NCBI GenBank assembly: GCA_040756435.1
Contig: JBFLZD010000013.1
Span: 2,249 to 66,248, forward strand
Source of the DNA: Spirochaetota bacterium
GTDB lineage: Bacteria > Spirochaetota > UBA4802 > UB4802
Direction: 5' to 3'
DNA: 64,000 nucleotides
Part shown: positions 4,210 to 58,882 of the stretch, one piece after another
Layout of the letters: the number at the start of each line of letters is the position of its first letter
How positions within the stretch are numbered: the stretch's first letter is position 1
Made by a program: the position numbers and the translations under genes
The notes under the pieces: model-generated
What the model was told of the DNA's origin: nothing
Seen by the model: the letters and a program-made list of their open reading frames with translations, nothing else
The model's database searches: none

Positions 4210-5034
4210 TTATTTAATAGGAATAAAACCTGCCTCTTTAACTATCGCCTGTCCTTCTAAAGAAAGCATAAAGTCTATAAATTCTTGAGCGGCAGGCTTT
4301 ATTTTGACTTCATTGACATACATATAGAGTTTGCGTGCTATGGGGTATTTTCCGCTTTTCCCATTTTCTATGGTTGGCTCTACATTATTCACATATAGCG
4401 GCTTGACTCTATCATTAAGGTAGCCATATCCCACATATCCAATTGCCTTTGGATTTTGTGAAACCGTCTGCAAAATTGCCCCATTTGAAGCCTGCAGCAA
4501 TGCATCTTTACGCACGTCAGCATGTTTCATTACTTTGGATTCCCACACCTCAAAGGTTCCAGAGCTTGAATCACGGGATATAACCACAATGGTTTCATCA
4601 TTGCCACCAACATCCTTCCAGTTTTTTACCGACCCTTCATAAATTGCTTTAAGCTGATGCAAGGTAAGGTTGGACACCGGATTTGAAGGATGCACAATAG
4701 GCACTATCATATCAAATGCAATAGCAACTTCTTTGATGATTTCACCCTTACGCTTTGCAAGCGCTAACTCTTCTGCATGCATTTCGCGTGAAGAGTTTGC
4801 AATATCACAGCTACCATCAATGAGCGACTTTATGCCATCACCAGAGCCAGTGCCTGAAAGGGTTATCACAATTTTATTCTTTTCATAAAATGCTTCGGCA
4901 GCTTTTTGAGTAACGGGTAACACGGTGGTTGAACCTTTAACCACTACTTTTTCCTTAGCTTCTTTTGAACACGATACAATAAATACTGTTACAATAAATA
5001 GTATGCATAGCGTTATGTAGCTTTGTATTTTCAT
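4210..5034 (-). CDS. pstS: phosphate ABC transporter substrate-binding protein PstS (lipoprotein), copy 1
   Basis: Lipoprotein signal (FIVSC) and the PstS family motifs KGSTTVLPV...LSGTGSGDGIKSLIDGSCDIANSSREM. Confidence 0.85.
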   Translation of the reverse strand: MKIQSYITLCILFIVTVFIVSCSKEAKEKVVVKGSTTVLPVTQKAAEAFYEKNKIVITLSGTGSGDGIKSLIDGSCDIANSSREMHAEELALAKRKGEIIKEVAIAFDMIVPIVHPSNPVSNLTLHQLKAIYEGSVKNWKDVGGNDETIVVISRDSSSGTFEVWESKVMKHADVRKDALLQASNGAILQTVSQNPKAIGYVGYGYLNDRVKPLYVNNVEPTIENGKSGKYPIARKLYMYVNEVKIKPAAQEFIDFMLSLEGQAIVKEAGFIPIK

Positions 5035-5197
5035 CCTTAAAACCTCCTTAAAAATATAATATAATTAATTTTAACTCATCATTATCAATATGTTCAACAC
5101 TTTTTTGCAAAAATCAAGTTACCTCTGCTGTGTAATAAATATTTGTTGGAATAATAATAGCCAAACCCCCAGCGAGGGTGACATTATTATATGACTT

Positions 5198-5240
5198 AAA
5201 AAATAAAAAATGCCGCCCCATGCTTTCTTTTGAGACGGCC
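5198..5240 (-). terminator. possible intrinsic terminator after pstS copy 2
   Basis: On the minus strand a weak GCCG...CGGC stem is followed by ATTTTTTATTTTTT. The stem is weak. Confidence 0.3.
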
Positions 5241-5264
5241 CATTCAATGAGTGTTATCTTCACA

Positions 5265-6092
5265 TCAATCAGTTAGTGGTATAAAACCTGCTGCTTTTAC
5301 AATCTGTTGTCCTTCTTTTGAAAGGATAAAATCAATAAATGCCTGCGCTTCAGGTTTTATTTTTACCTCATTGACATACATGTACAACTTTCGTGCTATT
5401 GGGTACGCACCCGATTTCCCGTTAGGTATAGTTGGTTCTACTCCATTTACAGTAAGTGCTTTTACTTTGTCATCTAAGTATCCGTATCCAACATATCCAA
5501 TTGCACGTTTATTCTTTGATACAACGGATATAATTGCACCATTGGAAGCCTGCAATAACGCATCCTTGCGCACTTCAGATTTCTTCATAACCTTTGATTC
5601 CCACACTTCAAACGTTCCTGAACTTGAATCACGGGATATTACAACTATCCTTTCATTGTTGCCACCCACCTGGCTCCAGTTAGTTATAGCGCCTTCATAG
5701 ATGGCTTTAAGCTGAGCCATTGACAAATTTTTTACAGGATTTGATTGATGAACAATAGGAACTATCATATCATACGCAATAGCAACTTCTTTAATCTTTT
5801 CACCTTTGGATTTTGCCATATCCCATTCTTCCTTCTTCATTTCCCGTGAAGAATTTGCTATATCACAGCTACCATCTATAAGCGACTTTATACCATCACC
5901 AGAACCTGTACCTGAAAGACTTATCACAATCTTTGTTTTTTCATAGAAAGCTTCCAGTGCTTTCTGGGCAATGGGTAATACGGTAGTTGAGCCTTTAATG
6001 ACTACCTTTCCCCCTTTTGTTTGTGAAAAACCAATTGATAATGAGCTTACTATCGCTAGTACCATGAAAATTAAAAAACTCTTGACCTTCAT
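5265..6092 (-). CDS. pstS: phosphate ABC transporter substrate-binding protein PstS, copy 2 (tandem paralog)
   Basis: About 65% amino-acid identity to copy 1 over the full length (KGSTTVLPIAQKALEAFYEK...SGTGSGDGIKSLIDGSCDIANSSREM), with a signal peptide. Confidence 0.85.
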   Translation of the reverse strand: MKVKSFLIFMVLAIVSSLSIGFSQTKGGKVVIKGSTTVLPIAQKALEAFYEKTKIVISLSGTGSGDGIKSLIDGSCDIANSSREMKKEEWDMAKSKGEKIKEVAIAYDMIVPIVHQSNPVKNLSMAQLKAIYEGAITNWSQVGGNNERIVVISRDSSSGTFEVWESKVMKKSEVRKDALLQASNGAIISVVSKNKRAIGYVGYGYLDDKVKALTVNGVEPTIPNGKSGAYPIARKLYMYVNEVKIKPEAQAFIDFILSKEGQQIVKAAGFIPLTD

Positions 6093-6170
6093 TATGGCCT
6101 CCTGTTATAATTTTAGTAACTTTTGGTTAAAACGCTATATGCATTTTTACACCATACTACGTACACCGTT

Positions 6171-6192
6171 ATTATAAAATTTTTATAAAGAT
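6171..6192 (-). promoter_or_regulatory. Pho-box-like phased direct repeats (TTATAAA at 11-bp spacing) in the pstS-2/pstB divergent region
   Basis: attataaaatt/tttataaagat read in the pstS direction give ATCTTTATAAA AATTTTATAAT. This matches the repeats upstream of pstC. Confidence 0.4.
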
Positions 6193-6299
6193 TAGATTAA
6201 TTTTCTATTTGATTTGAACTGAATTATTCTTTTCATCATAAACAGCAATGAGTCCTGTGGGGCAAAAAGCACTGCTATAGTACTAAAACTTTACATTTT

Positions 6300-6330
6300 C
6301 TTTACAATAGCATTATAAATCCTTAACATT
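6300..6330 (+). promoter_or_regulatory. Pho-box-like phased repeats upstream of pstB (CTTTACAAT / CATTATAAA / CTTAACATT at 11-bp phase)
   Basis: Three 9-mers start at 6300, 6311 and 6322, lie 65-95 bp upstream of the pstB ATG, and resemble the CTTTATAAT consensus seen at pstC. Confidence 0.35.
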
Positions 6331-6396
6331 TCAGTGGTTTGATAATTACAAGCAATAATGGAAATAACCAAACAGGTAAACAAATAACGGTGATAT

Positions 6397-7161
6397 ATGT
6401 CCGAAAGCACAGTAAAAGTTAAAGCCCAGAATCTTTCTTTTTTCTATGGGAATAATCAGGCATTATTCGATATCAATTTAACCGTACAGGCAAACACAGT
6501 TATGGCATTGATTGGCCCTTCTGGATGTGGTAAATCAACATTTCTTCGCTGCATCAACAGAATGAATGACATTATACCCTATACAAAAATTGAAGGCCAG
6601 TTAACCATAGATGGCGAATCCATATACCATACTAAATACGATGTCACACAACTTCGTAGACGCGTTGGTATGGTTTTTCAAAAATCAAACCCATTTCCAA
6701 AATCAATTTTTGACAATATAGCGTATGGTTTAAAAATAAATGGTATAAAAGATAGATATACCATTGAGCGTATCGTGGAAGACTCTCTGAAACGCACGGC
6801 ACTGTGGGATGAAGTTAAAGATAGGCTGCATACTTCGGCCATGAGCCTGTCAGGTGGGCAGCAGCAGCGCCTGTGCATTGCTCGAACTATTGCAGTGCAA
6901 CCCGAGATTATTTTAATGGATGAGCCAGCTTCAGCCCTTGACCCCATATCAACGCAAAAAATTGAAGAGCTTATTCAGGATTTGAAGAAGCAGTACACCA
7001 TTATTATTGTAACCCACAACATGCAGCAGGCAGCGCGCGTGAGCGATTATACCGCTTTCTTTTACATGGGAAAACTTATTGAAGTCAATAAAACCGAAAT
7101 CATGTTTACAAAACCAGAAAAACAGATGACTGAAAATTATATAACGGGAAAATTTGGATAA
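6397..7161 (+). CDS. pstB: phosphate ABC transporter ATP-binding protein PstB
   Basis: Walker [36 protein letters not shown], with the characteristic PstB length and start. Confidence 0.95.
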
Positions 7162-7180
7162 TCACTGAAAGGAGATAACA

Positions 7181-7834
7181 ATGCCAACCCATTTAGAACA
7201 GGAACTCAATGACTTACTGCGCAAAATACTTGAGATGGCAGACATTGCTATAGAAGCTGTTGCTGATGCTGTACAGTCACTAAAAACTATAGATGTGAAG
7301 TTAGCAGAAAAAGTGATACAAAAAGATTCAGTACTTGACCAATTGGAGATAGTTATTGATGAAGAATGTGGCAGGATTTTAGTAACCAAACAACCAGCAG
7401 CAGGTGATCTCAGGCTTATACTGGCAATCTTAAAATCAAACACTGACTTAGAGCGTATTGGTGATTTAGCAACCAACATTGCAAAAGAAACAATACGGCT
7501 TGAAGGAAAATCACTTTTAAAACCACTTATCGATATTCCCCGCATGACAGAAATTTGCATCAAGATGATAAAGTTAGCATTTCAGGCAATTACTGAAAAA
7601 AACATAGACTATGCAAAACAGTGTATAGCAACTGATAAAGAAGTGGATGAGCTCAATATGCAGATAAACCGTGAGCTATTTAGCTTTATGGTAGAAAATC
7701 CAGCAACCATTTCACCTGCATTTGGCCTTATCATGGTAGCAAAAGCATTGGAACGCATTGGCGATCATGCAACGAACATCGCTGAACGAGCCATATACTA
7801 CATAGAAGGTGAAGACATTCGTCATCAGGAGTAG
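7181..7834 (+). CDS. phoU: phosphate signalling complex protein PhoU
   Basis: Two PhoU repeats (...ERIGDLATNIAKE... and ...ERIGDHATNIAERAIY). Confidence 0.9.
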   Translation: MPTHLEQELNDLLRKILEMADIAIEAVADAVQSLKTIDVKLAEKVIQKDSVLDQLEIVIDEECGRILVTKQPAAGDLRLILAILKSNTDLERIGDLATNIAKETIRLEGKSLLKPLIDIPRMTEICIKMIKLAFQAITEKNIDYAKQCIATDKEVDELNMQINRELFSFMVENPATISPAFGLIMVAKALERIGDHATNIAERAIYYIEGEDIRHQE

Positions 7835-7837
7835 TAC

Positions 7838-8518
7838 ATGCCAAAAATATATGTAGTTGACGACGAAAAGGACATTCGTGAAATACTGAAAGTCAATCTT
7901 CAAAAAAATGGCTATGATGTTAGTACATTTGCTTCAGCTGAAGAGGTCCTTAAACAATTAACTATCGCCAAACCTGATCTTTTAATACTTGATATTATGA
8001 TGAGTGGCATGGATGGATTGGATTTGTGCAAACACATCAGGGCATCCAATACACTAAAAGATATACCCATTTTATTTCTTTCAGCAAAATCAGCAGAACT
8101 TGACAAAGTGCTGGGACTTGAGTTAGGGGCTGATGATTACCTAACAAAGCCATTCAGTATTCATGAACTCATTGCCCGTGTTAAAGCAATACTGCGGCGT
8201 GTCCAGGGGAAGGAAGAAGTGCCTAAAGAAGTTTTAACCTATAAAGGCATTGTACTGCATCCTGAAAAATTTTCAGTAACTATCGACAAAAACCCCATAG
8301 ACCTTACAAAGACTGAATTCCTTATCCTTAAACTTTTTATGCAATATCCTGGTAAAATTTTTTCCCGTGACAACATCATCGACAGCATCCGCGGCGACAA
8401 TGTCTATGTCATTGACAGAACCGTTGATGTGCATATTATGAATCTTAGAAAAAAATTAGGACATTACAAGGATGCAATTAAAACCTATTCTGGCGTTGGG
8501 TATGGATTAAAAGGGTAA
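7838..8518 (+). CDS. phoB: OmpR-family response regulator (PhoB/PhoP-like)
   Basis: Receiver domain (VVDDE...LLILDIMMSGMDGLDL...LSAKS) plus a winged-helix output domain. It sits in the operon after phoU and before the histidine kinase. Confidence 0.8.
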   Translation: MPKIYVVDDEKDIREILKVNLQKNGYDVSTFASAEEVLKQLTIAKPDLLILDIMMSGMDGLDLCKHIRASNTLKDIPILFLSAKSAELDKVLGLELGADDYLTKPFSIHELIARVKAILRRVQGKEEVPKEVLTYKGIVLHPEKFSVTIDKNPIDLTKTEFLILKLFMQYPGKIFSRDNIIDSIRGDNVYVIDRTVDVHIMNLRKKLGHYKDAIKTYSGVGYGLKG

Positions 8519-8522
8519 GTTA

Positions 8523-10256
8523 ATGTTTAAAAGTCTTAAAACAAAATTAATTGTTGTATACTCTGTAGCACTGGTATGCTTTATTTTTTTTCTTCTCATT
8601 TACAGTAGTAGCCATATACACAAAGAATTTACTGTATTCTTAAAAACTGAATTGCAGCAAAGTATTGATTACATTAATACTTACTGCCAGTCATTTCACA
8701 AACCCATTAACAAACAATTTTTTTCTTATGAGATAGTAACCGCTTTAAAAAATCTATCCTATAAAAGTTCCCTGCGCATAACCATTATTAACAATGATGG
8801 CACCGTACTTTTTGACACCGACGCCAACCCTGAATCAATGGAAAACCATCTGTATCGCCCCGAGATACTGGAAGCAAGAAAGAAAGGTACTGGTATGGCA
8901 AGTAGATTCAGTAATACAGTTGGTGCCGATATGTTATACGTTGCTTCATATTATAATTACTTCTATATTCGCACTGCAAAATCAATGTCTACTATCAATG
9001 CACTTATAGAGTCAATTACCAGAAATATCATCATTGCTGGAATCATCATCCTAATTATCAGCATTACCGTAACAGCAATTTTTGCTACTGCTTTCACACG
9101 ACCTATAAAAGAATCATTACACTTTATTAATACATTTTTTAACGGCAACCTACATGCGCGCATACTCAATTATAAAGATGATGAAATGGGCTACTTACAA
9201 AGAGCAATGAACACGCTTGCCGACAATATTCAGCAGCGTATTATAGAACTTACCAATGAAAAAAATAAACTCTTCATGATTATAGAAAACATCCATGACC
9301 CAATTGCGCTTATCGATGAAAATAAAAAAATTGTTATTTATAACAAAGCATTTGCAAACTGTTTTGAATATCCTGAAAGTTTAACAGATAAATACTACTT
9401 CACTGTTATCCGACATAGTGAGCTTAATGCCAAAATATATGTAGCATTTTCACAAAAGCAAAAAATATCGTTTGAAGAAACAATAGATGGTAAATATTTT
9501 CAAATTTTTATCTACCCCTTTGCTGAACCCGCCACAGGTATCCTGCTACTCATGCACGATGTAACCGAGCAAAAGCGCATTCAGCAACTCAAGTCAGATC
9601 TTGTGGGGAATTTATCGCATGAATTAAAAACGCCAATCAGCATCATCCGTGGATACTTAGAAACCATTAAAGACAACATTTGCGATCAAAAAACAGCAGA
9701 GCAATTCATTGAAAATGCACTCATAAATGTTGAACGCCAAAATGCAATTATCAACGACATGCTCAAACTCAACCAATTGGAGACTTCATCTTTCATTACC
9801 AATGAATCCATTGACCTTAAAAAAATCATTACACAGTGTGTAGAGTTGCTATCACCAAAAATTCAAAAAAAGAATCTGGCGATAGTAATAGATATACAGT
9901 CATTGCCACAAAGCATTACTGGCAATGCATTCCTGGCTGAAGAAATTTTTTTCAATCTAATAGATAATGCCATTAACTATAATAATCAAGGTGGATCAAT
10001 AACTATCACCGCACATAAAGAATCAAAATTACTGTCAATAAGTATTGCCGATACTGGCGTGGGCATCCCACCCGATGAAATACCAAGGATTTTTGAACGT
10101 TTTTACCGTGTTGACAAAAGCCGCTCACGCGAGACTGGTGGTACCGGTTTAGGATTATCCATTGTAAAACATGCAGCGCTTATTTTAGGATGGACAGTGG
10201 AAGCTACATCATCATCCAGCGGTTCAACATTCACAATTATTATACCATCAGCGTAA
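8523..10256 (+). CDS. phoR: sensor histidine kinase (PhoR-like)
   Basis: N-terminal transmembrane region, PAS-like region, HisKA H-box LSHELKTPISIIRGYLE, and HATPase_c N/G boxes (IDNAINY, GGTGLGLSIVKH). Confidence 0.75.
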   Translation: MFKSLKTKLIVVYSVALVCFIFFLLIYSSSHIHKEFTVFLKTELQQSIDYINTYCQSFHKPINKQFFSYEIVTALKNLSYKSSLRITIINNDGTVLFDTDANPESMENHLYRPEILEARKKGTGMASRFSNTVGADMLYVASYYNYFYIRTAKSMSTINALIESITRNIIIAGIIILIISITVTAIFATAFTRPIKESLHFINTFFNGNLHARILNYKDDEMGYLQRAMNTLADNIQQRIIELTNEKNKLFMIIENIHDPIALIDENKKIVIYNKAFANCFEYPESLTDKYYFTVIRHSELNAKIYVAFSQKQKISFEETIDGKYFQIFIYPFAEPATGILLLMHDVTEQKRIQQLKSDLVGNLSHELKTPISIIRGYLETIKDNICDQKTAEQFIENALINVERQNAIINDMLKLNQLETSSFITNESIDLKKIITQCVELLSPKIQKKNLAIVIDIQSLPQSITGNAFLAEEIFFNLIDNAINYNNQGGSITITAHKESKLLSISIADTGVGIPPDEIPRIFERFYRVDKSRSRETGGTGLGLSIVKHAALILGWTVEATSSSSGSTFTIIIPSA

Positions 10257-10259
10257 TCA

Positions 10260-10544
10260 TTAATTACGCTTTTTAACTTCTATCAATCTTCCATTCACAT
10301 ATTTGTGAAGGACACTGGATATCATTGTTTGGTAAGGTATCCCTTCCTCCATAGCAATCTTTTGCAAAGATTCAAGGTCATTCTGTGAAATGCGTATATT
10401 AATTCTCCTGTCTTTTTTCATTGAAGCTTTTGCATAGTTTATGTGTTTCTTTTTTTCTTTTTTAATGCCACTGACTTCCTTCCATTCACCTTTTTCATAT
10501 GATGTAAGGATATCTTGTTCATATTTGTTCAATTTTTTGGTCAT
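10260..10544 (-). CDS. brnA: BrnA-like antitoxin (ribbon-helix-helix)
   Basis: 94-aa ORF with ...RINIRISQNDLESLQKIAMEEGIPYQTMISSVLHKYVNGRL, typical of BrnA/COG3514. It overlaps the upstream toxin ORF by 4 nt. Confidence 0.65.
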   Translation of the reverse strand: MTKKLNKYEQDILTSYEKGEWKEVSGIKKEKKKHINYAKASMKKDRRINIRISQNDLESLQKIAMEEGIPYQTMISSVLHKYVNGRLIEVKKRN

Positions 10545-10819
10545 CTTCTACCTCCTAAATAAAGCTTTGTTGCCTTTCTGCTTGGGATAATAGTTTTAAG
10601 GAAAATTTCCTTTTCAGTTTCAATAAAAGGGACTAAATAAACATAACTATTAAACTCAATAACATATATTTTCTGATCTGGATATTTGTCAGGATTTTTG
10701 TGTTCAACGATTGATAATAATTTACCATTTTGTATACAATGTATTATATCCTCAAAACAAATACCACGCTCATTTTTCAAAAGTTTATTCTTTTCCTCAT
10801 TCCAGTTAAAAGTTTTCAT
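10541..10819 (-). CDS. brnT: BrnT-like toxin (DUF497)
   Basis: MKTFNWNEEKNKLLKNERGICFEDI matches the BrnT N-terminal consensus (FEWDxxKxxxNxxKHGISFEEA). 92 aa, directly upstream of brnA. Confidence 0.7.
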   Translation of the reverse strand: MKTFNWNEEKNKLLKNERGICFEDIIHCIQNGKLLSIVEHKNPDKYPDQKIYVIEFNSYVYLVPFIETEKEIFLKTIIPSRKATKLYLGGRR

Positions 10820-10827
10820 TAATAATG

Positions 10828-10856
10828 AATTTATGACAATGTGTGCCTTATGTCAA
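10828..10856 (-). promoter_or_regulatory. candidate sigma70-like promoter for brnTA with overlapping TGACA-N12-TGTCA inverted repeat
   Basis: On the minus strand: TTGACA (rc of 10851-10856), a 17-nt spacer, then TAAATT (rc of 10828-10833). The inverted repeat could be a BrnA autorepression operator. The -10 lies very close to the annotated ATG, so the transcript would be leaderless or the assignment is imperfect. Confidence 0.3.
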
Positions 10857-10942
10857 CATATATTTATAAAAAAATTAATGTGGATGCTTGCTGATGTCGT
10901 TTTCTGTATCATTTTCTTTGTCAGGAGTGCGTTAAGCTACTT

Positions 10943-11809
10943 TTATTGTTTAAATTTTTTCCTGTATTTATACCGCAAAACCATGCCGGCAAAATTCAAT
11001 CCCAGTACCAGTGCAATAAGCACAATGGCCGTACCATATTGGATATGGCGCGTTGCCTCAATATGAGTGCCTGCTGTTGCAAGCACATAGATATGATAAG
11101 GAAGTGCCATAACCTCGCTAAACAGTGAATCAGGGATATGCGGTGTATAAAATGTGGCACAGGTGAACATTATTGGAGCTGTTTCCCCTGCTGCTCTTCC
11201 CAGTGATAGCATAACACCAGTCAATATGCCCGGCAATGCAGTAGGCAGAACTATCTTATAAATGGTTTGCCATTTTGTTGCACCAAGTGAAAGTGATGCT
11301 TCACGATACGAAGTAGGGACTGTAAGAAGCGCTTCTTCGGTTGAGCGTATGACCAGCGGGAGATTAAGTATACCTAATGTAAGTGAACCTGCAATGATAG
11401 ATGAACCAAAATCCAAGAATATAACAAACACACTTAAGCCAAAAAGTCCAAACACTACCGAAGGGACTCCAGCAAGATTATTGATACCCAGACGAATAAA
11501 TTGCAGCACCTTACTATTTTCCACATACTCGGTTAAATAGATTGCCGTCATTACCCCAATGGGCACTGATATGACCGATGAACCAATCATAAGATACAGT
11601 GTGCCAAGAATTGCAGGGAATATCCCCCCTTCACGCATTTCGTTTTTGGGAAATGCAGTTAAAAATTCCAGGCTCAATGCGCGGTAACCCTGTAAAAATA
11701 TATATCCTAACACAAACAATAAAAATGCAATGATGGTATATGACAATGCAGTGATGATAATAAAAGAGGTTTTTTCAATTGCTTTTGCTTTTACCTGTAA
11801 TGATGCCAT
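10943..11809 (-). CDS. pstA: phosphate ABC transporter permease PstA
   Basis: 288-aa polytopic membrane protein with an ABC permease EAA-like region (ASLSLGATKWQTIYKIVLPTALPGI), downstream of pstC. Confidence 0.9.
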   Translation of the reverse strand: MASLQVKAKAIEKTSFIIITALSYTIIAFLLFVLGYIFLQGYRALSLEFLTAFPKNEMREGGIFPAILGTLYLMIGSSVISVPIGVMTAIYLTEYVENSKVLQFIRLGINNLAGVPSVVFGLFGLSVFVIFLDFGSSIIAGSLTLGILNLPLVIRSTEEALLTVPTSYREASLSLGATKWQTIYKIVLPTALPGILTGVMLSLGRAAGETAPIMFTCATFYTPHIPDSLFSEVMALPYHIYVLATAGTHIEATRHIQYGTAIVLIALVLGLNFAGMVLRYKYRKKFKQ

Positions 11810-11818
11810 AGTTTCCTT

Positions 11819-12787
11819 TTAATGATACTTAAATTTATATTTCATTGACAGATAGTTAGCAATAACATTAAAAAGCATGGTCAGTAGGAATAGAATGATG
11901 CCTATGGCAAATAGTGCATAATAATGGTCACTGCGGTATGATGCTTCGGCCATCTCGGCTGCAATGTTGGCTGTCAGTGGCCTCACAGGATCAAACAGCG
12001 ATGTAGGAAATGTTGTTGCACCACCAGCAACCATCAGCACCACCATGGTTTCGCCAAGGACGCGCGCAACCCCTAAAATGATAGCCGTCCATATACCAGA
12101 AAGGGCTGCCGGCATGGTAATGTGGACAATCGTCTGCCAGCGGTTTGCTCCCAGTGCATACGATGCTTCTTTCAGCGATACCGGCACCGAAGACAATGCA
12201 TCTTCGGATATGCTGGCAATGGTTGGTATTGCCATAAAAGCTAACATGATTGATGCATTGAAAAGGTTGAGGCCAGTGTCTATATCAAAGTGGTCTTGTA
12301 AAAATGGTGCAACGACTACCATGCCAAAAAATCCAATAATAACCGATGGGATGGATGCAATAAGCTCAATTGCCGGTTTTACAATTTCACGCACAAACGC
12401 TGGGGCTAATTCGGACAGATAAATTGCAATTCCCAAACTGAATGGTACAGCAATAATTGTTCCAATAAACGTAACAGATAAAGAGGCTACTATAAGTGGC
12501 AGCGTCCCAAATTTAGGCGGCTGTGATGTTGGATACCAACTTGTTCCAAAAAGGAAGTCTTTTACACTGACAACCTTGAAAACCGGTAAGCCTTCTTTAA
12601 AAAGAAAAATCATTATTAAAAATAAAAATGAAACTGAAAGAAAGCCAACAACAGCAAAAATATACTTTACCATCCTGTCGCTTACGTTGTGAATATTAAG
12701 TGCAGATTGTAATGTTTGTTTTAGCATAAAATACAGTAATACTCTTATTATGGTTTGTCTTTCATGAAAACTATCTACCCTAAACAA
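11819..12787 (-). CDS. pstC: phosphate ABC transporter permease PstC
   Basis: 322-aa polytopic membrane protein (ASYALGANRWQTIVHITMPAALSGI), first gene of the minus-strand pstCA pair. Confidence 0.9.
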   Translation of the reverse strand: MFRVDSFHERQTIIRVLLYFMLKQTLQSALNIHNVSDRMVKYIFAVVGFLSVSFLFLIMIFLFKEGLPVFKVVSVKDFLFGTSWYPTSQPPKFGTLPLIVASLSVTFIGTIIAVPFSLGIAIYLSELAPAFVREIVKPAIELIASIPSVIIGFFGMVVVAPFLQDHFDIDTGLNLFNASIMLAFMAIPTIASISEDALSSVPVSLKEASYALGANRWQTIVHITMPAALSGIWTAIILGVARVLGETMVVLMVAGGATTFPTSLFDPVRPLTANIAAEMAEASYRSDHYYALFAIGIILFLLTMLFNVIANYLSMKYKFKYH

Positions 12788-18033: not shown

Positions 18034-20907
18034 TTACAATAATTCTAATGTTATAAACAATAGCTCATAGGGATTCATAGTTGTTTCTATGGCATTATTT
18101 TTCATTGCCACAGGTTTGATTTTTTTGCCCGAAACATCTGAACAATACGCTCTTTGTATTTTTCTTTTTGTAGTAATGGTGCATATAGCTTTTTGTTTTT
18201 TTCCCAATATCTCATACATGCCAATGACTATCTTGTTTTGCGAAATGGGCTGATTGTAGAGTATAGCTATATGTGCATTGTTTGTTTGTATAAATGGTGG
18301 TTGAACAAAATCTGATTCATCAAAACTAAACCTGTATGCAGTTGCTATCGCTTCATTGTGTGTCTGTGCAGTAAAACTTGTAAAAGTGCTTTTAAAGGCG
18401 ATAGTACCTGGCAAATCTCTCCCCAGTCCCAATTTACCCCACAATGTCCATCCAATGCAGCAGTGATAAAATCCTGCCATATCATCTTTGACAGGAACTA
18501 TCGCTTTACTATCCTGTGACACAAAAACTGCATACTGCAAACCTTCTTTATGTAAAACAAACGAGTCAAAATATACCGATGATGGCAATCCATGCATCCA
18601 CTGAAACGGATACAGCGTATCGTTTATGCTTCTAAACGGGGCTATGTTTTTTGCAGCAAGGATAAGATTGCCGCCAGTATCCACCCCTCCCCAACGCAAC
18701 ACGGTACAAGCAGAATCATACAACATTTCCCGTGAGTTTACAGGATAGGCAAAGTAATGCTCGGCAATCTGCGGTGCGCTACCTGCAAAACGCTGGATGA
18801 AATCAATACGCTTTTCACTTCCAGGGATGATAATTTCCTGAGTAACCGATAGCGATGGAGTAAAAAGCTGATAGAAAAAATATGCTATTTTTAACAGCAC
18901 CGGTGGTAACTTTACCTCAAAGGCGTTGTGTAAAAACTCTGATAGTAGCTCCATTCCCTTATAGTATGAATGCTCTGACCCTTCTATAACTATGCGATAA
19001 TCATTCCCATTGGTAAACAGGCTGGTAGTTACCTTTTTAAAGCCTGCAATTGTTTCAAAGTAATTGCGCCTGGCAGCATTTTCCCCACGAACGCCAATAA
19101 CATACTGATTGAATCCGTACGTATGATTTTTATTAACCCACTCCTTCTGTAATTGTTTATCATGTATACTGGTGATACATCCTTTGCCCGTATCAAAAGC
19201 TATTCTGTAAAATTGATTTTCTATAATGATTGGTTTTTCTGCATCATAGGATATCTTTGTCCACTGTTTGTCTTCTTTATTTGCCTGCAAAAGTTTAAAA
19301 TCTTTGATTATATTCATTGGGGTATATACCCACTGATTGCGTGTATTCATCCAGTCGTTAACATCCTGTTTTGTGTAATGGGTTTTCCCAAATGGAACAG
19401 GGCGTGGATTATGATCATTGTTGAGTATAATTGCCATATACCCTTCAAGATTTTTAGCTATGTATGTTTCTATATTATCCGTGTGATTATTTAAAACTGC
19501 ATCACTATACGTTTTCCCTAAAGAGAAGATTGCAGTATCATACCGTGAATTAATCGATAAACGCTGTGGATCTACCTGTATAAAATCCAGGTAAATCTGC
19601 TCGCCCCAAAATGGTGGCATTTCCCCTTTTAGTACTGGGATATTGTTTGCATACCTTTGCTCAATGTAATCAAAGAACTCTTGCGGGGTTGCAATGATAA
19701 TCTCCGGATTAACAAATCTGGTGTTCCATGTTTTAGCTATTTCTGAAGGGACTTTGTTTTGCGGCTGATTATCACCACCTTCTGCAGGATAATACGGCAA
19801 CAAGTACGCATCATAGGGATACTCCCAGTGTTTATGGTTATAATCATAGTAGCGCTGTATTTCTTCTGTAGGATAGCCCTTTTCAAGTTGGGCTAAATGA
19901 TATGCAATACTATTCTCCATGCTGATAAATTCTTCATCTTTGAAAGGTAAGGACAGACGCATATTCAAATCAAAATTTTCGCCATACCCATTTAAACAGG
20001 CAGTATGCCACACCATCACCTTTGCACTACCATCAGGTGACACAAGATAAAATAGTGGCGGAACCCTATATCGTGAATCGTTAGGTCCAACCAAACAATA
20101 GGGGATATTATTTGCCTGTAACACCTTTGTAATCTTTGAAAAATCCATAACATCATGAATACATGCGGTTTTTACATTTATTGAATATTGCTGTGCAATG
20201 CGCAGGGTATGATGCAATGATGCAAAAAGCGCATACGGACTCATGAATCTATTCTGGTGAGATATAACAAATGCCCCCAATTCAAAATCCTTTTTTTGTA
20301 AGGCAGCTACAAGTTTTGACTTTTCCTGTTTAGATATTGCTGAACTATTCAGAAATTCTATAACAGGCCAGCTAACCTCAGTAAAAAGCTTGAAACGCGC
20401 ACGTGCTGGATAGTGTTTGGTTTGTTCAAGCAGCAAAAGCTCTTTCTGTAAATTTGAAATATTTTGTGCACGCACATTTTTTTGCGATTGCGTAAATCCT
20501 ATATCAACATGGGTAAATGGAACACAATAGATTTTCCACATCTTTACTGGTGGAATAGTCAGCGTTTTTTTGATTATAATTGTGTTTTTGTTTTTTATGG
20601 TAACATCTAAACGGGAAGGTTGTGTAATAGTTTTTCTGTAACAATCGATAGTTGATTCTTTAACTTTGTTTGTAACATTCTTTTTTGTAACAACGCCATC
20701 AATTGATGCTATGATCTGGCCTTCAAATTCCTGATCAGCCTGTATCATTATTCTCTGGCAATATAACCCTTTATGCGTATATACTAACGGGGTTGGATAT
20801 ATGGTGACAGTAAGCGTGGTTGCTATCGCATAGCTAAAAGAAAGTAACACAAACATTGCAGTGCATACTATGTTCCCATACACGGCAAACCTCCCTACAA
20901 CTATCAT
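18034..20907 (-). CDS. glycoside hydrolase family 38-like protein (alpha-mannosidase-like), N-terminally membrane-anchored
   Basis: 957 aa. The N-terminal catalytic region YCVPFTHVDIGFT resembles the GH38 HxHxDxGW motif, and the length and architecture are consistent. The family assignment is from memory, not alignment. Confidence 0.45.
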   Translation of the reverse strand: MIVVGRFAVYGNIVCTAMFVLLSFSYAIATTLTVTIYPTPLVYTHKGLYCQRIMIQADQEFEGQIIASIDGVVTKKNVTNKVKESTIDCYRKTITQPSRLDVTIKNKNTIIIKKTLTIPPVKMWKIYCVPFTHVDIGFTQSQKNVRAQNISNLQKELLLLEQTKHYPARARFKLFTEVSWPVIEFLNSSAISKQEKSKLVAALQKKDFELGAFVISHQNRFMSPYALFASLHHTLRIAQQYSINVKTACIHDVMDFSKITKVLQANNIPYCLVGPNDSRYRVPPLFYLVSPDGSAKVMVWHTACLNGYGENFDLNMRLSLPFKDEEFISMENSIAYHLAQLEKGYPTEEIQRYYDYNHKHWEYPYDAYLLPYYPAEGGDNQPQNKVPSEIAKTWNTRFVNPEIIIATPQEFFDYIEQRYANNIPVLKGEMPPFWGEQIYLDFIQVDPQRLSINSRYDTAIFSLGKTYSDAVLNNHTDNIETYIAKNLEGYMAIILNNDHNPRPVPFGKTHYTKQDVNDWMNTRNQWVYTPMNIIKDFKLLQANKEDKQWTKISYDAEKPIIIENQFYRIAFDTGKGCITSIHDKQLQKEWVNKNHTYGFNQYVIGVRGENAARRNYFETIAGFKKVTTSLFTNGNDYRIVIEGSEHSYYKGMELLSEFLHNAFEVKLPPVLLKIAYFFYQLFTPSLSVTQEIIIPGSEKRIDFIQRFAGSAPQIAEHYFAYPVNSREMLYDSACTVLRWGGVDTGGNLILAAKNIAPFRSINDTLYPFQWMHGLPSSVYFDSFVLHKEGLQYAVFVSQDSKAIVPVKDDMAGFYHCCIGWTLWGKLGLGRDLPGTIAFKSTFTSFTAQTHNEAIATAYRFSFDESDFVQPPFIQTNNAHIAILYNQPISQNKIVIGMYEILGKKQKAICTITTKRKIQRAYCSDVSGKKIKPVAMKNNAIETTMNPYELLFITLELL

Positions 20908-40280: not shown

Positions 40281-40670
40281 ATGATAATCAGGGATATTTC
40301 ATATAAACTTAATGTTATTTTTAAACACAATAATGTTGTGTTTGCATATCTATTTGGTTCAATAGCCAAAAATGAAATATCGCCATCAAGTGATATTGAT
40401 ATTGCTGTGTATTTAAAAAATAGTAATTCTGAGAAGCTATTTAATACACTGCTTTCAATCCATCTTGATACCTGCAGAGCTTTGAAAACAAATAACGTTG
40501 ACATTGTCATCCTTAATACAAATTACAACCTAATGCTAATAGATGAAATAATACGAAATGGGATACTACTTTATGATGCCGATCCCCAATTTCGTGAAGA
40601 ATTTGAATGTAAAATGATTCATTCAGCAATTGATTTCAAAACCCAACGTTATTTCACAATTAAAGTATAA
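40281..40670 (+). CDS. mntA: minimal nucleotidyltransferase (MNT) antitoxin, MntA-like
   Basis: GS...DID motif (AYLFGSIAKNEISPSSDIDIAVYL), 129 aa, immediately upstream of the HEPN gene. Confidence 0.75.
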   Translation: MIIRDISYKLNVIFKHNNVVFAYLFGSIAKNEISPSSDIDIAVYLKNSNSEKLFNTLLSIHLDTCRALKTNNVDIVILNTNYNLMLIDEIIRNGILLYDADPQFREEFECKMIHSAIDFKTQRYFTIKV

Positions 40671-41092
40671 TGGAAAGAATAGTATACAAAATTGGCAAAA
40701 TTAGGGAATATCTATCAATTGTATATTCTATAAAAGACGATTGTCATAATCGTTTTACTATCGATCCTATTTACAGGGGAGCAATGCTCCATTACCTCTA
40801 TCTTTTATCAGACTCTTGTATAACTTTAGCAGAGCTTGTGATTAAATATAAAAAATTACGAATTCCTCAAACATATTATGAAGCTATAGACATACTTGGG
40901 GAAAACAATATCATAAATCCTGTATTTGCGTATTCTTTTGCCAAAATTGCAGGTTTTAGAAATTATTTAGCCCATGATTATGAACAGATAAGTCCAATTA
41001 TAATCTGCAATGAAATTTTAAACAAACTTCAAGATATTGAAAACTATCTGTCACAAATTGAAAAATCGTTAGGCATTGATTTCTATAACTAA
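40670..41092 (+). CDS. hepT: HEPN-domain toxin, HepT-like (DUF86)
   Basis: Rx4-6HxY motif RNYLAHDY, 140 aa. Its start codon overlaps the MNT stop (TAATG). Confidence 0.75.
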   Translation: MERIVYKIGKIREYLSIVYSIKDDCHNRFTIDPIYRGAMLHYLYLLSDSCITLAELVIKYKKLRIPQTYYEAIDILGENNIINPVFAYSFAKIAGFRNYLAHDYEQISPIIICNEILNKLQDIENYLSQIEKSLGIDFYN

Positions 41093-54479: not shown

Positions 54480-55991
54480 ATGAACTATCGCTCTCATAAA
54501 ATAACAATATTATTATTCTTTATACTGTTGGTTGCAATTTTTCTTTCACTTAGTATTTTTTTTAAAGCGTTTTATCCTTTTCATGTATCCTGCATACCAT
54601 CAAAATCTACTGAGCATGAATTTTTACAATACTTTGACCAGCGCATAAAAGTTTTAATGACAAAATATAACATTCCAGGTGTAAATATTGCTCTCATCAG
54701 ACAAGGAAAACTATTGTGGGTAAATGCATATGGCTTTGCCAACAAAGAAAAAGCAATACCCATGAAACTGGAAACAACCTGCCGCGTTGAGTCAATTTCA
54801 AAATCAGTAACAGCGTGGGGTATTTTAAAACTGATTGAGCGGGGAGCTATTTCTCTTGATGATCGGGTTATAAAACATTTGAAAACATGGAAATTCCCAC
54901 CATCTGCATTTAATCCTGAAACCATAACAATACGGCAGTTATTAAGCCACAGTGCAGGATTGCCCCTGGGTACAATCGGAGTCAGCTATGCTCCTGATGT
55001 CGTAATACCAACCTTACGAGAAAGTCTTTACAAGGATGCCGTCATGATGACATCTCCTGGCTCAACATTTTCTTACTCAAATACAGGATTTAATCTGCTT
55101 GAATTGCTGATTGAAGAGGTAACAAACCAACCTTTTGCCGTATATATGCAGCAAGAAATTTTGCAGCCCTTAGGCATGAAGCACTCAAGCTATCAATGGA
55201 GGGATAGTTTTCAACCATTTCCTAACGGATATACCCTTGATGGTAAACCCGTCCCTGCTTATGCATATCCTGAAAAAGGTGCAGGTGGCTTATTTTCAAC
55301 AATTGAAGATATTACGCGGTTTGTTACTGCAGGTATGACTAAATTCAATGACACCAGCACAAAAGTACTTTCTCACCAATCTATACAGACATTATACAAC
55401 CCCACGGTAAAGATACCTGGCCTGTATGGTTTTGCTTTCCCATGGTATGGTTTTGGACATTTTATTGAATTTTCAAAAAATAATATGATAGCAGTATCAC
55501 ACGGAGGACAGGGTACAGGATGGATGACACACTTCCATTCAATACCCCAAACTGGTGATGGTATTGTAATTTTAACCAATAGCCAACGCAGCTGGCCTTT
55601 TTTTGCATATATTCTGAATGATTGGGCACGGTGGATTGGATTTGATTCTATAGGAATGAGTAAGATTATCTTTGCAGAATATACATTATGGATTGTATTA
55701 TATCTGATATTCATGATACTACTGATATATGTATATCGTCTGTTAAAAGGATTAGTGTTACATACTCGTTCATTCATGTTCATTCAGAAAAGATATTCGC
55801 CTGGGCAGATACTAAAGCTTTGTATTGCCTGTGGCATATTTGGTATACTATTATGGTCTATTAATCAAGATTATCTTTTTATCACATCTGTATTTCCTGA
55901 AGCTTCAGTATGGGCAGGGTATTGTCTTGCTTTTTGTGGCTTTGTGCTGCTTATGTATTTTTTTATGCCTGAAAAAAGTATAAGCAGCTAA
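54480..55991 (+). CDS. beta-lactamase-related serine hydrolase with a C-terminal polytopic membrane region
   Basis: SxxK (SISKSV), YxN (YSNTG) and HGG motifs; N-terminal signal anchor; about 4 C-terminal TM helices. Confidence 0.75.
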   Translation: MNYRSHKITILLFFILLVAIFLSLSIFFKAFYPFHVSCIPSKSTEHEFLQYFDQRIKVLMTKYNIPGVNIALIRQGKLLWVNAYGFANKEKAIPMKLETTCRVESISKSVTAWGILKLIERGAISLDDRVIKHLKTWKFPPSAFNPETITIRQLLSHSAGLPLGTIGVSYAPDVVIPTLRESLYKDAVMMTSPGSTFSYSNTGFNLLELLIEEVTNQPFAVYMQQEILQPLGMKHSSYQWRDSFQPFPNGYTLDGKPVPAYAYPEKGAGGLFSTIEDITRFVTAGMTKFNDTSTKVLSHQSIQTLYNPTVKIPGLYGFAFPWYGFGHFIEFSKNNMIAVSHGGQGTGWMTHFHSIPQTGDGIVILTNSQRSWPFFAYILNDWARWIGFDSIGMSKIIFAEYTLWIVLYLIFMILLIYVYRLLKGLVLHTRSFMFIQKRYSPGQILKLCIACGIFGILLWSINQDYLFITSVFPEASVWAGYCLAFCGFVLLMYFFMPEKSISS

Positions 55992-56039
55992 AAAATATTT
56001 TCTTAATATGTTGACAAACGTGCTACAATTTTTTGAAGT

Positions 56040-56140
56040 ATTCTACACTATACTGTAATTACGTTACTGGGGATGGGGTCCCCCGTTAAACGCCTTCCGG
56101 CTGATGGCTCCTACTGCATGGCAGTAGGTTTTTTATTTTT
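56040..56140 (+). promoter_or_regulatory. candidate structured 5' leader / transcription attenuator upstream of the cation:proton antiporter gene
   Basis: GC-rich paired elements (GGGGATGGGGTCCCCCG...) that end in an intrinsic terminator hairpin CCTACTGC-atg-GCAGTAGG plus TTTTTTATTTTT (56110-56140), 42 nt before the antiporter ATG. A possible promoter (TTCTTA-N18-TACAAT) lies around 56005-56035. Confidence 0.4.
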
Positions 56141-56181
56141 ACCTGCGCCAAAATTCTTAACTATATTTTATGGAGGTTTTT

Positions 56182-57393
56182 ATGCTGACTATGTTTGTAG
56201 TAGCATCGGTGTGGCTTGGACTGGCAGTTATTTCCACAATTCTTGCAAACAGGCTTAAAATATCAATGGCCCTTATGGAAATTACCGTTGGGGCAATAGC
56301 AGGTTTCATCTTTGCTAAATATTTTAATCCTGATTTTATGCAGGCTAATTCTGACTGGATAAAATTTATTGCCGGTACCGGAGCTGTAGTGCTAACCTTT
56401 TTAGCTGGTGCAGAACTTGATTATCATACCATCCGGGATACATTTAAAGAAGTTACCATTGTTGGCTTTATAGGCTTTCTTTCTCCATTTATTGGGTGCA
56501 CATTGATTGCATATTACATTCTTGGCTGGAGCTTCCAGTCCAGCTTACTTGCCGGTGTGGCACTGTCCACTACATCCATGGCTGTCGTGTACGCAGTTAT
56601 GATTGAATACGGATTTAATAAAACAAAATATGGCAAGGGAATACTGGGAGCATGTTTTATAAATGATCTGGGAACAGTCATTGCACTTGGAATCATATTT
56701 GCCCCATTTACCTACAAAACAATTATTTTTATAATAGTGGCGATAGTAACCTTTATTGCCATGCCGGTAATAACTTCACGGCTTACAAAAGTCTATGGCC
56801 ACCGTACCGTAGCAATAAGAACCAAGTGGATATTATTTATATTGTTTGCATTAGGATCGTTAGCTCTATGGTCGGGCAGTGAAGCTGTACTGCCTGCATA
56901 TATACTGGGGATGGTACTTGCTTCAAGTGTTGCTAAGGATGAATTTTTTATGCGCCGTTTAAGGACACTTACAATAGGATTTTTAACACCAATTTATTTT
57001 TTACGTGCTGGATTTTTAGTGAATCTTCCTGTAATTTTTCTTGCCCCATTACCGTTTATAATACTTTTTAGCGGCAAAGTTATCACAAAAATCTTTGGGT
57101 TATATCCTGTCATTGGTATATTCAAAGAAAGCACTAAAGAGCGATGGTACTATACACTTCTTATGTCAACAGGACTGACATTTGGATCAATCTCAGCATT
57201 GTTTGGTTTAACTCATAATATTATTGACCAGAACCAGTATTCATTTTTAATTGCCGCTGTTATTGCCAGTGCTGTTGTTCCCACTCTTATTGCCAATACA
57301 TACTTTTTACCTGAACATCTACTTGAAGTTCCAATGGCAGATGAGGAAATACCCCAATTAGATGGATTAAACGGTTCAACTAATAATAAATGA
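56182..57393 (+). CDS. cation:proton antiporter (CPA/Na+-H+ exchanger family)
   Basis: About 12 TM helices with Na_H_Exchanger-like composition. Start set at the second ATG, 5 nt after GGAGG; the ORF track starts at 56170. Confidence 0.7.
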   Translation: MLTMFVVASVWLGLAVISTILANRLKISMALMEITVGAIAGFIFAKYFNPDFMQANSDWIKFIAGTGAVVLTFLAGAELDYHTIRDTFKEVTIVGFIGFLSPFIGCTLIAYYILGWSFQSSLLAGVALSTTSMAVVYAVMIEYGFNKTKYGKGILGACFINDLGTVIALGIIFAPFTYKTIIFIIVAIVTFIAMPVITSRLTKVYGHRTVAIRTKWILFILFALGSLALWSGSEAVLPAYILGMVLASSVAKDEFFMRRLRTLTIGFLTPIYFLRAGFLVNLPVIFLAPLPFIILFSGKVITKIFGLYPVIGIFKESTKERWYYTLLMSTGLTFGSISALFGLTHNIIDQNQYSFLIAAVIASAVVPTLIANTYFLPEHLLEVPMADEEIPQLDGLNGSTNNK

Positions 57394-57452
57394 TACTATA
57401 CTATACCATACTGCGTAATGCGGTGTGGTATAGTGGTACAATAAAAATTCTT

Positions 57453-57481
57453 TTGACTTTTATGTATGTACACTGTATACT
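57453..57481 (+). promoter_or_regulatory. sigma70-like promoter (TTGACT-N17-TATACT) for the C69 peptidase gene
   Basis: Near-consensus hexamers with 17-nt spacing, about 70 nt upstream of the ATG; RBS AAAGGGGA. Confidence 0.45.
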
Positions 57482-57550
57482 GTGAGTTGTAATTTTAAAA
57501 CCAAGAGCAACAGAGCATATACTCATACTAAAAAATGAAAGGGGATTGTT

Positions 57551-58882
57551 ATGTGTGATACCATTGTTGCCACCAGCAAAGCTACTGCCGACGGCAGTGT
57601 AATCTTAGCAAAAAATAGTGACAGGGAAGCTAACGAAGCACAGCTATTAAAATATATAGCCAGACGAAACTGGGGTAGCGAAACAGCTGTCCAATGCACC
57701 TACATATCCATACCGCAGGTAAAAAGCACCCATGAAATATTAATTTCAACACCATTCTGGATGTGGGGTTGTGAAATGGGAGCAAATGAACATGGCCTTG
57801 CTATTGGCAATGAGGCGGTATTTACCAAAGAACCCTATGAAAAAACAGGACTTTTAGGTATGGATATTATGCGGTTAGCTTTAGAACGCTGTAAAACTGC
57901 GTATGATGCACTCATGCTATCCACCGAACTTATAGAACGCTATGGTCAGGGTGGCAATGCGGGAATGGAACATACATTATATTACCACAACTCATTTATA
58001 TTTGCTGACACTAACGAAGCGTATATCCTTGAAACCGCTAATAAACAATGGGTTGCAGTAAAAGTTGATGGTATACGCAGTATTTCTAATGGATTGACCA
58101 TAGAAGAAGAATACCATTATTCTTCAAAAAATATTGAGGATTATGCCCGCAAAAAAGGATACCTGAAAAAAGGAAAAACCTTTAACTTTAAAGAATGCTT
58201 TTCTGATTGGTTTTATACATATTTTTCAAAATGCGCTTCACGGCAATCACGGACAACAAGTTGTGCCATGCGCCATTCCGGTTCCATCACACCACACAGT
58301 ATGTTTGCATTTTTGCGTGATCACGGCAGCGACCAAGAATATCTTTCTCCCGATAAAACTGATATGGGAACGGTGTGTATGCATGCGTCACTTCTTCCCA
58401 CACGTCCAAGCCAATCGGTTGCTGCATTTGTTGCACATCTGCGCAAAGACACTCCTGTATTCTGGGCAACCGGATCATCAGGGACCTGTACAAGTGTCTT
58501 TATGCCATTTTATCTTGTTGGAAAAGAAATAGATTATTTTCCCGCAAATGAAACAAGTACATACTCACCTGACGTATACTGGTGGTTGCATGAAAAAATA
58601 CACCGTCAGGCCATTTTCAAATGGGATTATTTCCAGAGGACTATCGCCCCCGCTATTAATACACTTGAAGATGAATTTATTAAAAAAGAAAATGAACTGC
58701 ACAAAAAGAAGAATACCAGTAGCCAGAAGTATTTTGATTTTTCAAAACAATGTGTGGAAAAGGTCATTGAACTCCATGATCGCTGGGATAAGGAACTAAA
58801 AGCAGCTCCACCATCCCCAACCAGGCTTTCATTTAAGCTATTCTGGAATGGTCAGTCAAAAAAAGCCATGATACCCCTGTAA
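57551..58882 (+). CDS. Ntn-hydrolase peptidase, C69-family dipeptidase-like
   Basis: Nucleophile Cys at position 2 (MCDTIVATSKATADGSVILAKNSDR), as in C69 dipeptidases (MCTTI...ARNED). 443 aa. Confidence 0.6.
   Translation: MCDTIVATSKATADGSVILAKNSDREANEAQLLKYIARRNWGSETAVQCTYISIPQVKSTHEILISTPFWMWGCEMGANEHGLAIGNEAVFTKEPYEKTGLLGMDIMRLALERCKTAYDALMLSTELIERYGQGGNAGMEHTLYYHNSFIFADTNEAYILETANKQWVAVKVDGIRSISNGLTIEEEYHYSSKNIEDYARKKGYLKKGKTFNFKECFSDWFYTYFSKCASRQSRTTSCAMRHSGSITPHSMFAFLRDHGSDQEYLSPDKTDMGTVCMHASLLPTRPSQSVAAFVAHLRKDTPVFWATGSSGTCTSVFMPFYLVGKEIDYFPANETSTYSPDVYWWLHEKIHRQAIFKWDYFQRTIAPAINTLEDEFIKKENELHKKKNTSSQKYFDFSKQCVEKVIELHDRWDKELKAAPPSPTRLSFKLFWNGQSKKAMIPL

Follow-up and report, generated by a model that had tools for sequence, protein, structure and literature searches.

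We conclude with high confidence that the leader at 56060-56140 is a crcB-motif fluoride riboswitch that most likely acts as a transcriptional ON switch and controls a monocistronic gene for a CPA2-like cation:proton antiporter (56182-57393). Positions are those of the window, which is the whole stretch of DNA that was analysed (64 kb). Computation revealed a complete aptamer, an overlap between this aptamer and an intrinsic terminator, and conservation of the aptamer together with the gene. The RNA itself is a canonical, high-scoring member of Rfam family RF01734, a known class, and brings nothing new about riboswitches. The wider result is that one well-delimited antiporter clade is nearly always under predicted fluoride control.

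A Fluoride Aptamer Precedes the Antiporter Gene

The leader and the elements of its aptamer are as follows.

54480-55991 (+) to 56170-57393 (+), intergenic region between a beta-lactamase-family gene and the Na_H_Exchanger ORF, holding a GC-rich stretch and a hairpin
56060-56120 (+), fluoride riboswitch aptamer (crcB motif, Rfam RF01734), 53.6 bits against a gathering score of 34
56069-72 with 56081-84 (+), helix P1, GGGG with CCCC, four G-C pairs at the consensus position
56092-94 with 56099-101 (+), second helix, GCC with GGC, loop UUCC, at the consensus position
56075-80 with 56106-111 (+), pseudoknot, GGGGUC with GGCUCC, 6 bp, -6.8 kcal/mol
56072-76 and 56101-06 (+), conserved segments GAUGG and CUGAUG (CUGAUGG at 56101-07), both intact
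56104 with 56112 (+), proposed linchpin pair, A with U, at the long-range A-U position

An Rfam covariance-model scan, which the earlier note on this DNA had proposed as a check, was run on the 64-kb window at the gathering threshold and gave a single match, RF01734 being the sole family to reach its gathering score. The match spans model positions 1-64 of 64 (full length), with an E value of 4.9e-12 for the whole 64-kb window, both strands, and of 3e-14 locally, and it exceeds chance expectation. No second fluoride aptamer was found in the window by this gathering-threshold scan. A permissive scan at E <= 10 was carried out on 55900-56300 (401 nt). Neither the Na+ (DUF1646) nor the Li+ (nhaA-I) riboswitch family was among the ten matches listed, and those remaining beside RF01734 were far-sub-threshold chance matches.

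The pseudoknot joins the P1 loop to the 3′ tail by the six base pairs that characterise the class. It contains two G-U wobbles (G56077-U56109 and U56079-G56107) at positions where most relatives have A-U or U-A. We take A56104 and U56112 to be the counterparts of the A40-U48 linchpin of Thermotoga petrophila, by our own mapping onto the numbering of the 4ENC sequence; the conserved nucleotides around the Mg2+/F- site of that RNA are A6, U7, G8, U41 and G42. The role of the long-range A-U linchpin pair has been described (PMC11077080). The location also agrees with the class, because the downstream gene encodes a Na_H_Exchanger protein, a class associated with fluoride toxicity (PMC11139923).

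The GC-rich stretch GGGGATGGGGTCCCCCGTTAAACGCCTTCCGGCTGATGGCTCC was located at 56069-56111, and the G+C content of the cmscan match was 59% in an otherwise AT-rich intergenic region. The earlier note had described a GC-rich, structured leader of ~100 nt that ends in a terminator hairpin before the antiporter gene. The sequence was as described, and the RF01734 match and the terminator scan both bear out the structured leader with its hairpin; the GC-rich character in AT-rich surroundings also held. The size needs revision, the GC-rich structured core being ~50-60 nt.

The Terminator Platform Overlaps the Aptamer

Two further features lie between the pseudoknot and the start codon.

56110-56140 (+), intrinsic terminator, stem CCUACUGC/GCAGUAGG (56110-17 with 56121-28), loop AUG, called by the terminator scan
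56172-56176 (+), Shine-Dalgarno sequence GGAGG, 5 nt before ATG 56182, read from the sequence and invariant in five spirochaete-clade leaders

The hairpin CCTACTGC-ATG-GCAGTAGG (56110-56128) has 8 bp and a folding energy of -11.1 to -11.8 kcal/mol, and the terminator is present in the minimum free energy (MFE) structure of 56060-56140 (-11.8 kcal/mol). The latter value is near the class average, as predicted fluoride-riboswitch terminators average -10.2 kcal/mol, with a mean start position within the aptamer (PMC12667848). The T tract TTTTTTATTTTT that follows (56129-56140) reads U6-A-U5 in the RNA and not U8, as had been stated before. The end of the hairpin lies 53 nt and the end of the T tract 41 nt before ATG 56182, so the previous figure of ~42 nt from hairpin to start codon was too short.

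The 5′ arm of the terminator (56110-17) reuses C56110 and C56111, the last two pseudoknot bases, together with the conserved UAC tail (56112-14). Therefore, aptamer and terminator are mutually exclusive, as is required of an expression platform in this class. Overlapping, mutually exclusive terminators and pseudoknots have been described for fluoride riboswitches (PMC11077080; PMC12667848), and in the Bacillus cereus and T. petrophila switches six pseudoknot nucleotides are exchanged into the terminator base (PMC12667848). Because only two pseudoknot base pairs and the UAC tail are overlapped here, as against six, the detail of switching may differ. The smaller overlap is a matter of degree and falls inside the diversity already known.

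The MFE structure of the 146-nt leader (56036-56181) was not more stable than those of shuffled sequences (z -0.91), and in it a downstream hairpin replaced the terminator. This is expected, since neither the pseudoknot nor the order of transcription is represented in the folding model; the whole-leader MFE is therefore uninformative, and sub-region folds were used in its place. It was also observed that the second-helix loop CUUCCG (56094-99) is complementary to the Shine-Dalgarno region UGGAGG (56171-76) in this whole-leader structure, a complementarity that is probably due to chance.

Candidate promoter elements were read from the sequence upstream of the aptamer.

56011-56041 (+), candidate promoter region, TTGACA at 56011-16 and extended -10-like TGCTACAAT at 56021-29 (TGnTAnnnT)
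56036-41 (+), alternative -10 element AAGTAT, 19-nt spacer from TTGACA

TTGACA is kept in four of the five spirochaete-clade leaders and TGnTAnnnT in all five. The region was not called by a simple sigma-70 scan, and the spacing of TTGACA and TGCTACAAT is unfit for a single sigma-70 promoter; it is offered as a candidate promoter from sequence inspection. The proposal that the terminator forms the expression platform of a riboswitch-type element, between a promoter and the gene, is supported by the RF01734 match, the terminator scan, the folds and the conservation in orthologues.

Conservation of the Aptamer Upstream of Homologous Antiporters

Homologous loci were collected from two sources. 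A genome scan with one genome per species yielded 21 antiporter loci (48-95% identity) from Spirochaetota, Bacteroidota, Nitrospirota (Nitrospirales), Smithella, Fimbriimonadales, Terriglobia and Calescibacterium. A fluoride aptamer was found directly upstream on the same strand in 20/20 of the genome loci scanned with Rfam, and in the 21st (L020) the aptamer was found with our own covariance model. A metagenome scan added 80 more loci (55-71% identity), 77 of which had usable upstream sequence, and a solid upstream aptamer was present in 71 of these 77. No upstream aptamer was found in L026, L063, L066, L077 and L090, and L054 was counted as negative because its weak 18.3-bit match to our own model was unconfirmed by Rfam. 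In L063, the antiporter gene is preceded by a H+-pyrophosphatase gene cut by the contig end, and a riboswitch may lie further upstream there. In total, 92 of the 98 loci that could be assessed (~94%), from many phyla, have a same-strand aptamer upstream. Loss of the leader upstream of orthologues had been named beforehand as the result that would count against a riboswitch, and what was observed is the opposite of loss.

The pairing pattern was examined in the 21 aptamers. In P1, the pseudoknot and the one counted pair of the second helix, 99.5% of cells were paired, with changes on both sides in five pairs; the observed values were reached by none of 500 shuffles, and slid controls were 41-68% paired. 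Only the outer pair of the second helix was counted because the MAFFT alignment is out of register there. The pseudoknot was 100% paired in 20 distinct sequences, with both-side changes in two pairs, and the third pair of P1 varied among GC, CG, UA and UG across the 21 loci; covariation was seen in both P1 and the pseudoknot.

The expression platform varies among the loci. In four close spirochaete relatives, orthologous loci of 91-95% identity (L001-L004), aptamer and terminator are nearly invariant while the flanking leader has diverged; the terminator stem is invariant, the sole change (AUG/ACG) being in the loop. In L005-L018, which comprise the Bacteroidales, Smithella and most of the other distant relatives, 17-30 nt separate the end of the aptamer from the start codon, and in most of these loci folding paired a (A/G)ACUCCU tail with the AGGAGUU Shine-Dalgarno region. 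As it is the same 3′ tail that pairs with the Shine-Dalgarno sequence in L005-L018, the aptamer is tied to the gene whatever the platform. Of 86 leaders examined with a crude scan, ~24 had terminator-like hairpins. Within the clade, the spirochaete lineage appears to use a terminator, and Bacteroidales and others to sequester the Shine-Dalgarno sequence; both platform types are already known for the class.

A DUF6062 Cys-rich protein (~215 aa) is encoded between aptamer and antiporter in three loci (L049, 835-1479; L050, 526-1182; L080, 310-975). From its position it is apparently co-regulated by fluoride there; no characterisation of DUF6062 was found in the literature searched. Extra fluoride aptamers were also seen beside the antiporter loci, at 6911-6972 (-) in L012 and at 4870-4933 (+) and 2524-2593 (-) in L019, the latter locus having three aptamers within 2.5 kb. 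The ORFs behind the aptamers at 5084-6820 in L012 and 4936-6990 in L019 carry P-loop GTPase motifs and are dynamin-like by eye, and the L019 ORF at 1196-2473, behind the aptamer at 2524-2593 (-), is enolase-like by eye.

Alternative Readings of the Leader

The leader might exert dual control, in which termination is combined with gating of the translation or stability of the read-through mRNA, either by a second hairpin or by pairing of the second-helix loop CUUCC with the Shine-Dalgarno sequence.

56119-56150 (+), possible second hairpin, terminator 3′ arm UGGCAGUAGGU (56119-29) with ACCUGCGCCA (56141-50), the U tract forming the loop

This hairpin has a folding energy of -13.1 kcal/mol; when the 28 nt downstream were shuffled, an equally stable fold arose in only 4 of 200 cases. 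It is conserved in L001-L003, and the two substitutions in L004 preserve the pairing, with 10 bp kept. Moreover, distant relatives do sequester the Shine-Dalgarno sequence, and the whole-leader MFE structure pairs 56094-99 with 56171-76. However, the second hairpin stays clear of the Shine-Dalgarno sequence, the pairing with the loop spans 75 nt in a fold that is not more stable than those of shuffled sequences (z -0.91), and the conservation comes from five closely related sequences only. Similar arrangements in some unrelated leaders were no better than chance. Because the second hairpin is transcribed only past the release point, after read-through, it cannot affect termination itself, and the case for a functional role in read-through transcripts is weak. 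Dual control is thus considered improbable, and the leader is preferably read as a termination switch.

It could also be argued that the hairpin and T tract are the terminator of the beta-lactamase-family gene (54480-55991), that the antiporter is transcribed from a promoter further downstream, for example at 56138-56167, and that the aptamer is an unused relic. The beta-lactamase-family gene is on the same strand and lacks a canonical terminator of its own, and the 56138-56167 site, between the T tract and the start codon, is a promoter-like match, albeit a weak one (9/12). Matches of this quality are within chance, the scan giving 6 where 3.0 +/- 1.9 would be expected. In 92/98 loci, with unrelated upstream neighbours, the aptamer sits before the antiporter gene, and in L005-L018 it abuts the Shine-Dalgarno sequence, leaving a promoter no room. 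In the spirochaete clade the aptamer is under strong purifying selection, and the leader varies most in the stretch that would hold the downstream promoter. The association of aptamer and gene persists through changes of platform, which is a strong argument against the hairpin being a mere terminator of the upstream gene, and we regard this explanation as very improbable compared with a fluoride riboswitch acting on the antiporter.

Attenuation by a leader peptide has next to no probability: an ATG-initiated ORF of 61 codons (56073-56258) does span the hairpin, but its ATG belongs to the aptamer's invariant GAUGG segment and has no preceding Shine-Dalgarno sequence, it enters the antiporter coding region in another frame, and in orthologues its reading frame is lost through single-base indels, within the J1/2 linker in L002 and within the T tract in L001, L002 and L004, for which reason leader-peptide attenuation was rejected. 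The suspicion of the earlier note that this ORF is spurious was thus well founded, and its mention of an attenuator as an alternative to a riboswitch found no support.

Equally negligible is the reading of the earlier note that the leader senses Na+ or Li+, as a riboswitch of the DUF1646 or nhaA-I class matched to the cation that the antiporter transports. Only the gene context favours it, Li+ riboswitches commonly preceding nhaA-type antiporters (PMC9646797); it is already refuted at the level of sequence and structure, as no such Rfam match was obtained at E <= 10 on the 401 nt, the fluoride model matched end to end with 53.6 bits, and all 20 Rfam-scanned genome loci matched the fluoride model. 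The kind of element had therefore been recognised correctly from the sequence, and the ligand wrongly, since fluoride is predicted in place of Na+ or Li+. In annotations, the leader is best named a fluoride riboswitch and the antiporter predicted to be fluoride-induced, not salt- or lithium-induced.

Predicted Mechanism

Fluoride binding and fluoride-dependent activation at this leader are predicted by analogy with characterised switches. As in B. cereus and T. petrophila, the pseudoknot would form co-transcriptionally. When fluoride is absent, the nascent hairpin (56110-56128) would displace the pseudoknot, and RNA polymerase would be released at the U tract, at about 56136-56140. When fluoride is bound as a Mg2+/F- cluster, the pseudoknot and the long-range A-U pair would be locked, the terminator would not form, and transcription would enter the antiporter gene. 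The read-through mRNA would then be translated from GGAGG and ATG 56182.

According to a 2024 review (PMC11139923), entry of HF lowers the cytoplasmic pH and depletes the proton-motive force. The review places Na+/H+ antiporters directly behind the fluoride exporters among the genes most often associated with fluoride riboswitches. The antiporter may thus help the cell to withstand both effects of HF, as the literature suggests.

The CPA2-like Antiporter

The gene under predicted control has the following coordinates.

56182-57393 (+), CPA2-like cation:proton antiporter, 403 aa, PF00999 (Na_H_Exchanger), E 5.5e-37

The PF00999 match scored 127.9 bits against a cut-off of 26.2 over residues 18-373, covering the transmembrane domain, and the protein is 100% identical to the NCBI entry 'MAG: cation:proton antiporter [Spirochaetota bacterium]'. 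Translation most likely begins at ATG 56182 and not at ATG 56170, judging from sequence comparison: the in-frame ATG equivalent to 56170 is missing in L002, and GGAGG (56172-76) precedes ATG 56182.

The nearest solved structures were NapA (E 4e-12) and KefC (3e-8). The D156-D157 pair of NapA aligned with N161-D162 here, so that the Asp-Asp ion-binding motif of TM5 is not present; the N-D pair was invariant in 17 clade members, as were the ALSTTS, WSGSE and MSTGLTFG motifs. The hallmark motifs of the clade are CF(V/I)NDLGT and MSTGLTFG. The NCBIfam CPA2 model TIGR00932 gave 98.4 bits, below its cut-off of 238.3. Because both the Asp-Asp motif and a TIGR00932 score above the cut-off are lacking, the antiporter was filed only as 'CPA2-like'. 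No equivalog for the clade was found, and no characterisation of a riboswitch-associated CPA2-like antiporter clade was found in the literature searched. The clade could be a dedicated fluoride-stress transporter without classical Na+/H+ exchange, having for example K+/H+ or another proton-balancing activity specific to HF influx, although we consider this rather unlikely. The clade offers a clean starting point for testing the actual function of fluoride-associated 'Na+/H+ antiporters'.

No CRCB (CrcB/Fluc) or Voltage_CLC domain was found by Pfam among the ~52 ORFs of at least 110 aa in the 64-kb window, indicating that the antiporter is not part of a visible exporter operon. No terminator was found after the antiporter gene in 57300-57650. 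The next gene (57551-58882, Peptidase_C69-like) starts 157 nt downstream and has its own promoter-like site (10 of 12). Given this 157-nt gap and the separate promoter-like site, the riboswitch probably controls the antiporter alone.

Other Observations in the Window

A long imperfect hairpin, GCTGCTTAT...ATAAGCAGC (55943-55991), spans the last codons of the beta-lactamase-family gene and gave spurious sub-threshold Rfam miRNA matches; it might be a 3′ stabiliser or terminator of that gene. A phosphate-uptake and regulation cluster occupies 4210-12787, with two PstS-like binding proteins, a PstB-like ATPase, PhoU, a response regulator, a PAS histidine kinase and two permease genes. At 40281-41092, a nucleotidyltransferase gene (Polbeta/MNT-like) adjoins one for a HepT-like RNase, which is a type VII toxin-antitoxin signature. 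An ORF of 957 aa at 18034-20907 (-) showed no Pfam match at E <= 1e-5 and sits in a sugar-acid utilisation cluster with UxuA, a GntR/FCD regulator, a RraA-like aldolase and an epimerase.

Comparison with Known Systems

The closest counterparts are the B. cereus crcB and T. petrophila switches. They have the same P1 and second helix and the same 6-bp pseudoknot, which links the P1 loop to the 3′ tail, share the GAUGG and CUGAUG...CUCCUAC segments with the leader described here, and likewise carry a terminator 5′ arm that overlaps the 3′ pseudoknot strand before a fluoride-stress gene. In contrast to these switches, the overlap here takes in two pseudoknot pairs plus the UAC tail instead of all six nucleotides, the pseudoknot has two G-U wobbles, and the controlled gene encodes an antiporter and not crcB. 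These differences are within the reported diversity of the class (PMC12667848).

In Clostridioides difficile, a fluoride riboswitch precedes the CD0656-7 operon, which encodes a CLC protein and a NhaP-type antiporter (PMC11477304). In both cases the fluoride aptamer stands before a gene for a cation:proton antiporter, which is the second most common association of the class. However, the antiporter of C. difficile is of the NhaP type (CPA1) and in an operon with CLC-F, whereas the one described here stands alone and is CPA2-like with an N-D motif.

The Li+ (nhaA-I) and Na+ (DUF1646) riboswitches follow the same logic, with an ion-sensing leader and a terminator before a cation/proton antiporter gene. 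The present leader matches neither in sequence or structure, and its predicted ligand is the anion fluoride and not the transported cation. At the protein level, the antiporter shares the Na_H_Exchanger fold family with NapA of Thermus thermophilus (PDB 4BWZ, 5BZ2, 5BZ3) and with KefC (8BXG), but it has N161-D162 where NapA has the ion-binding D156-D157 and, unlike KefC, it carries no KTN/RCK domain.
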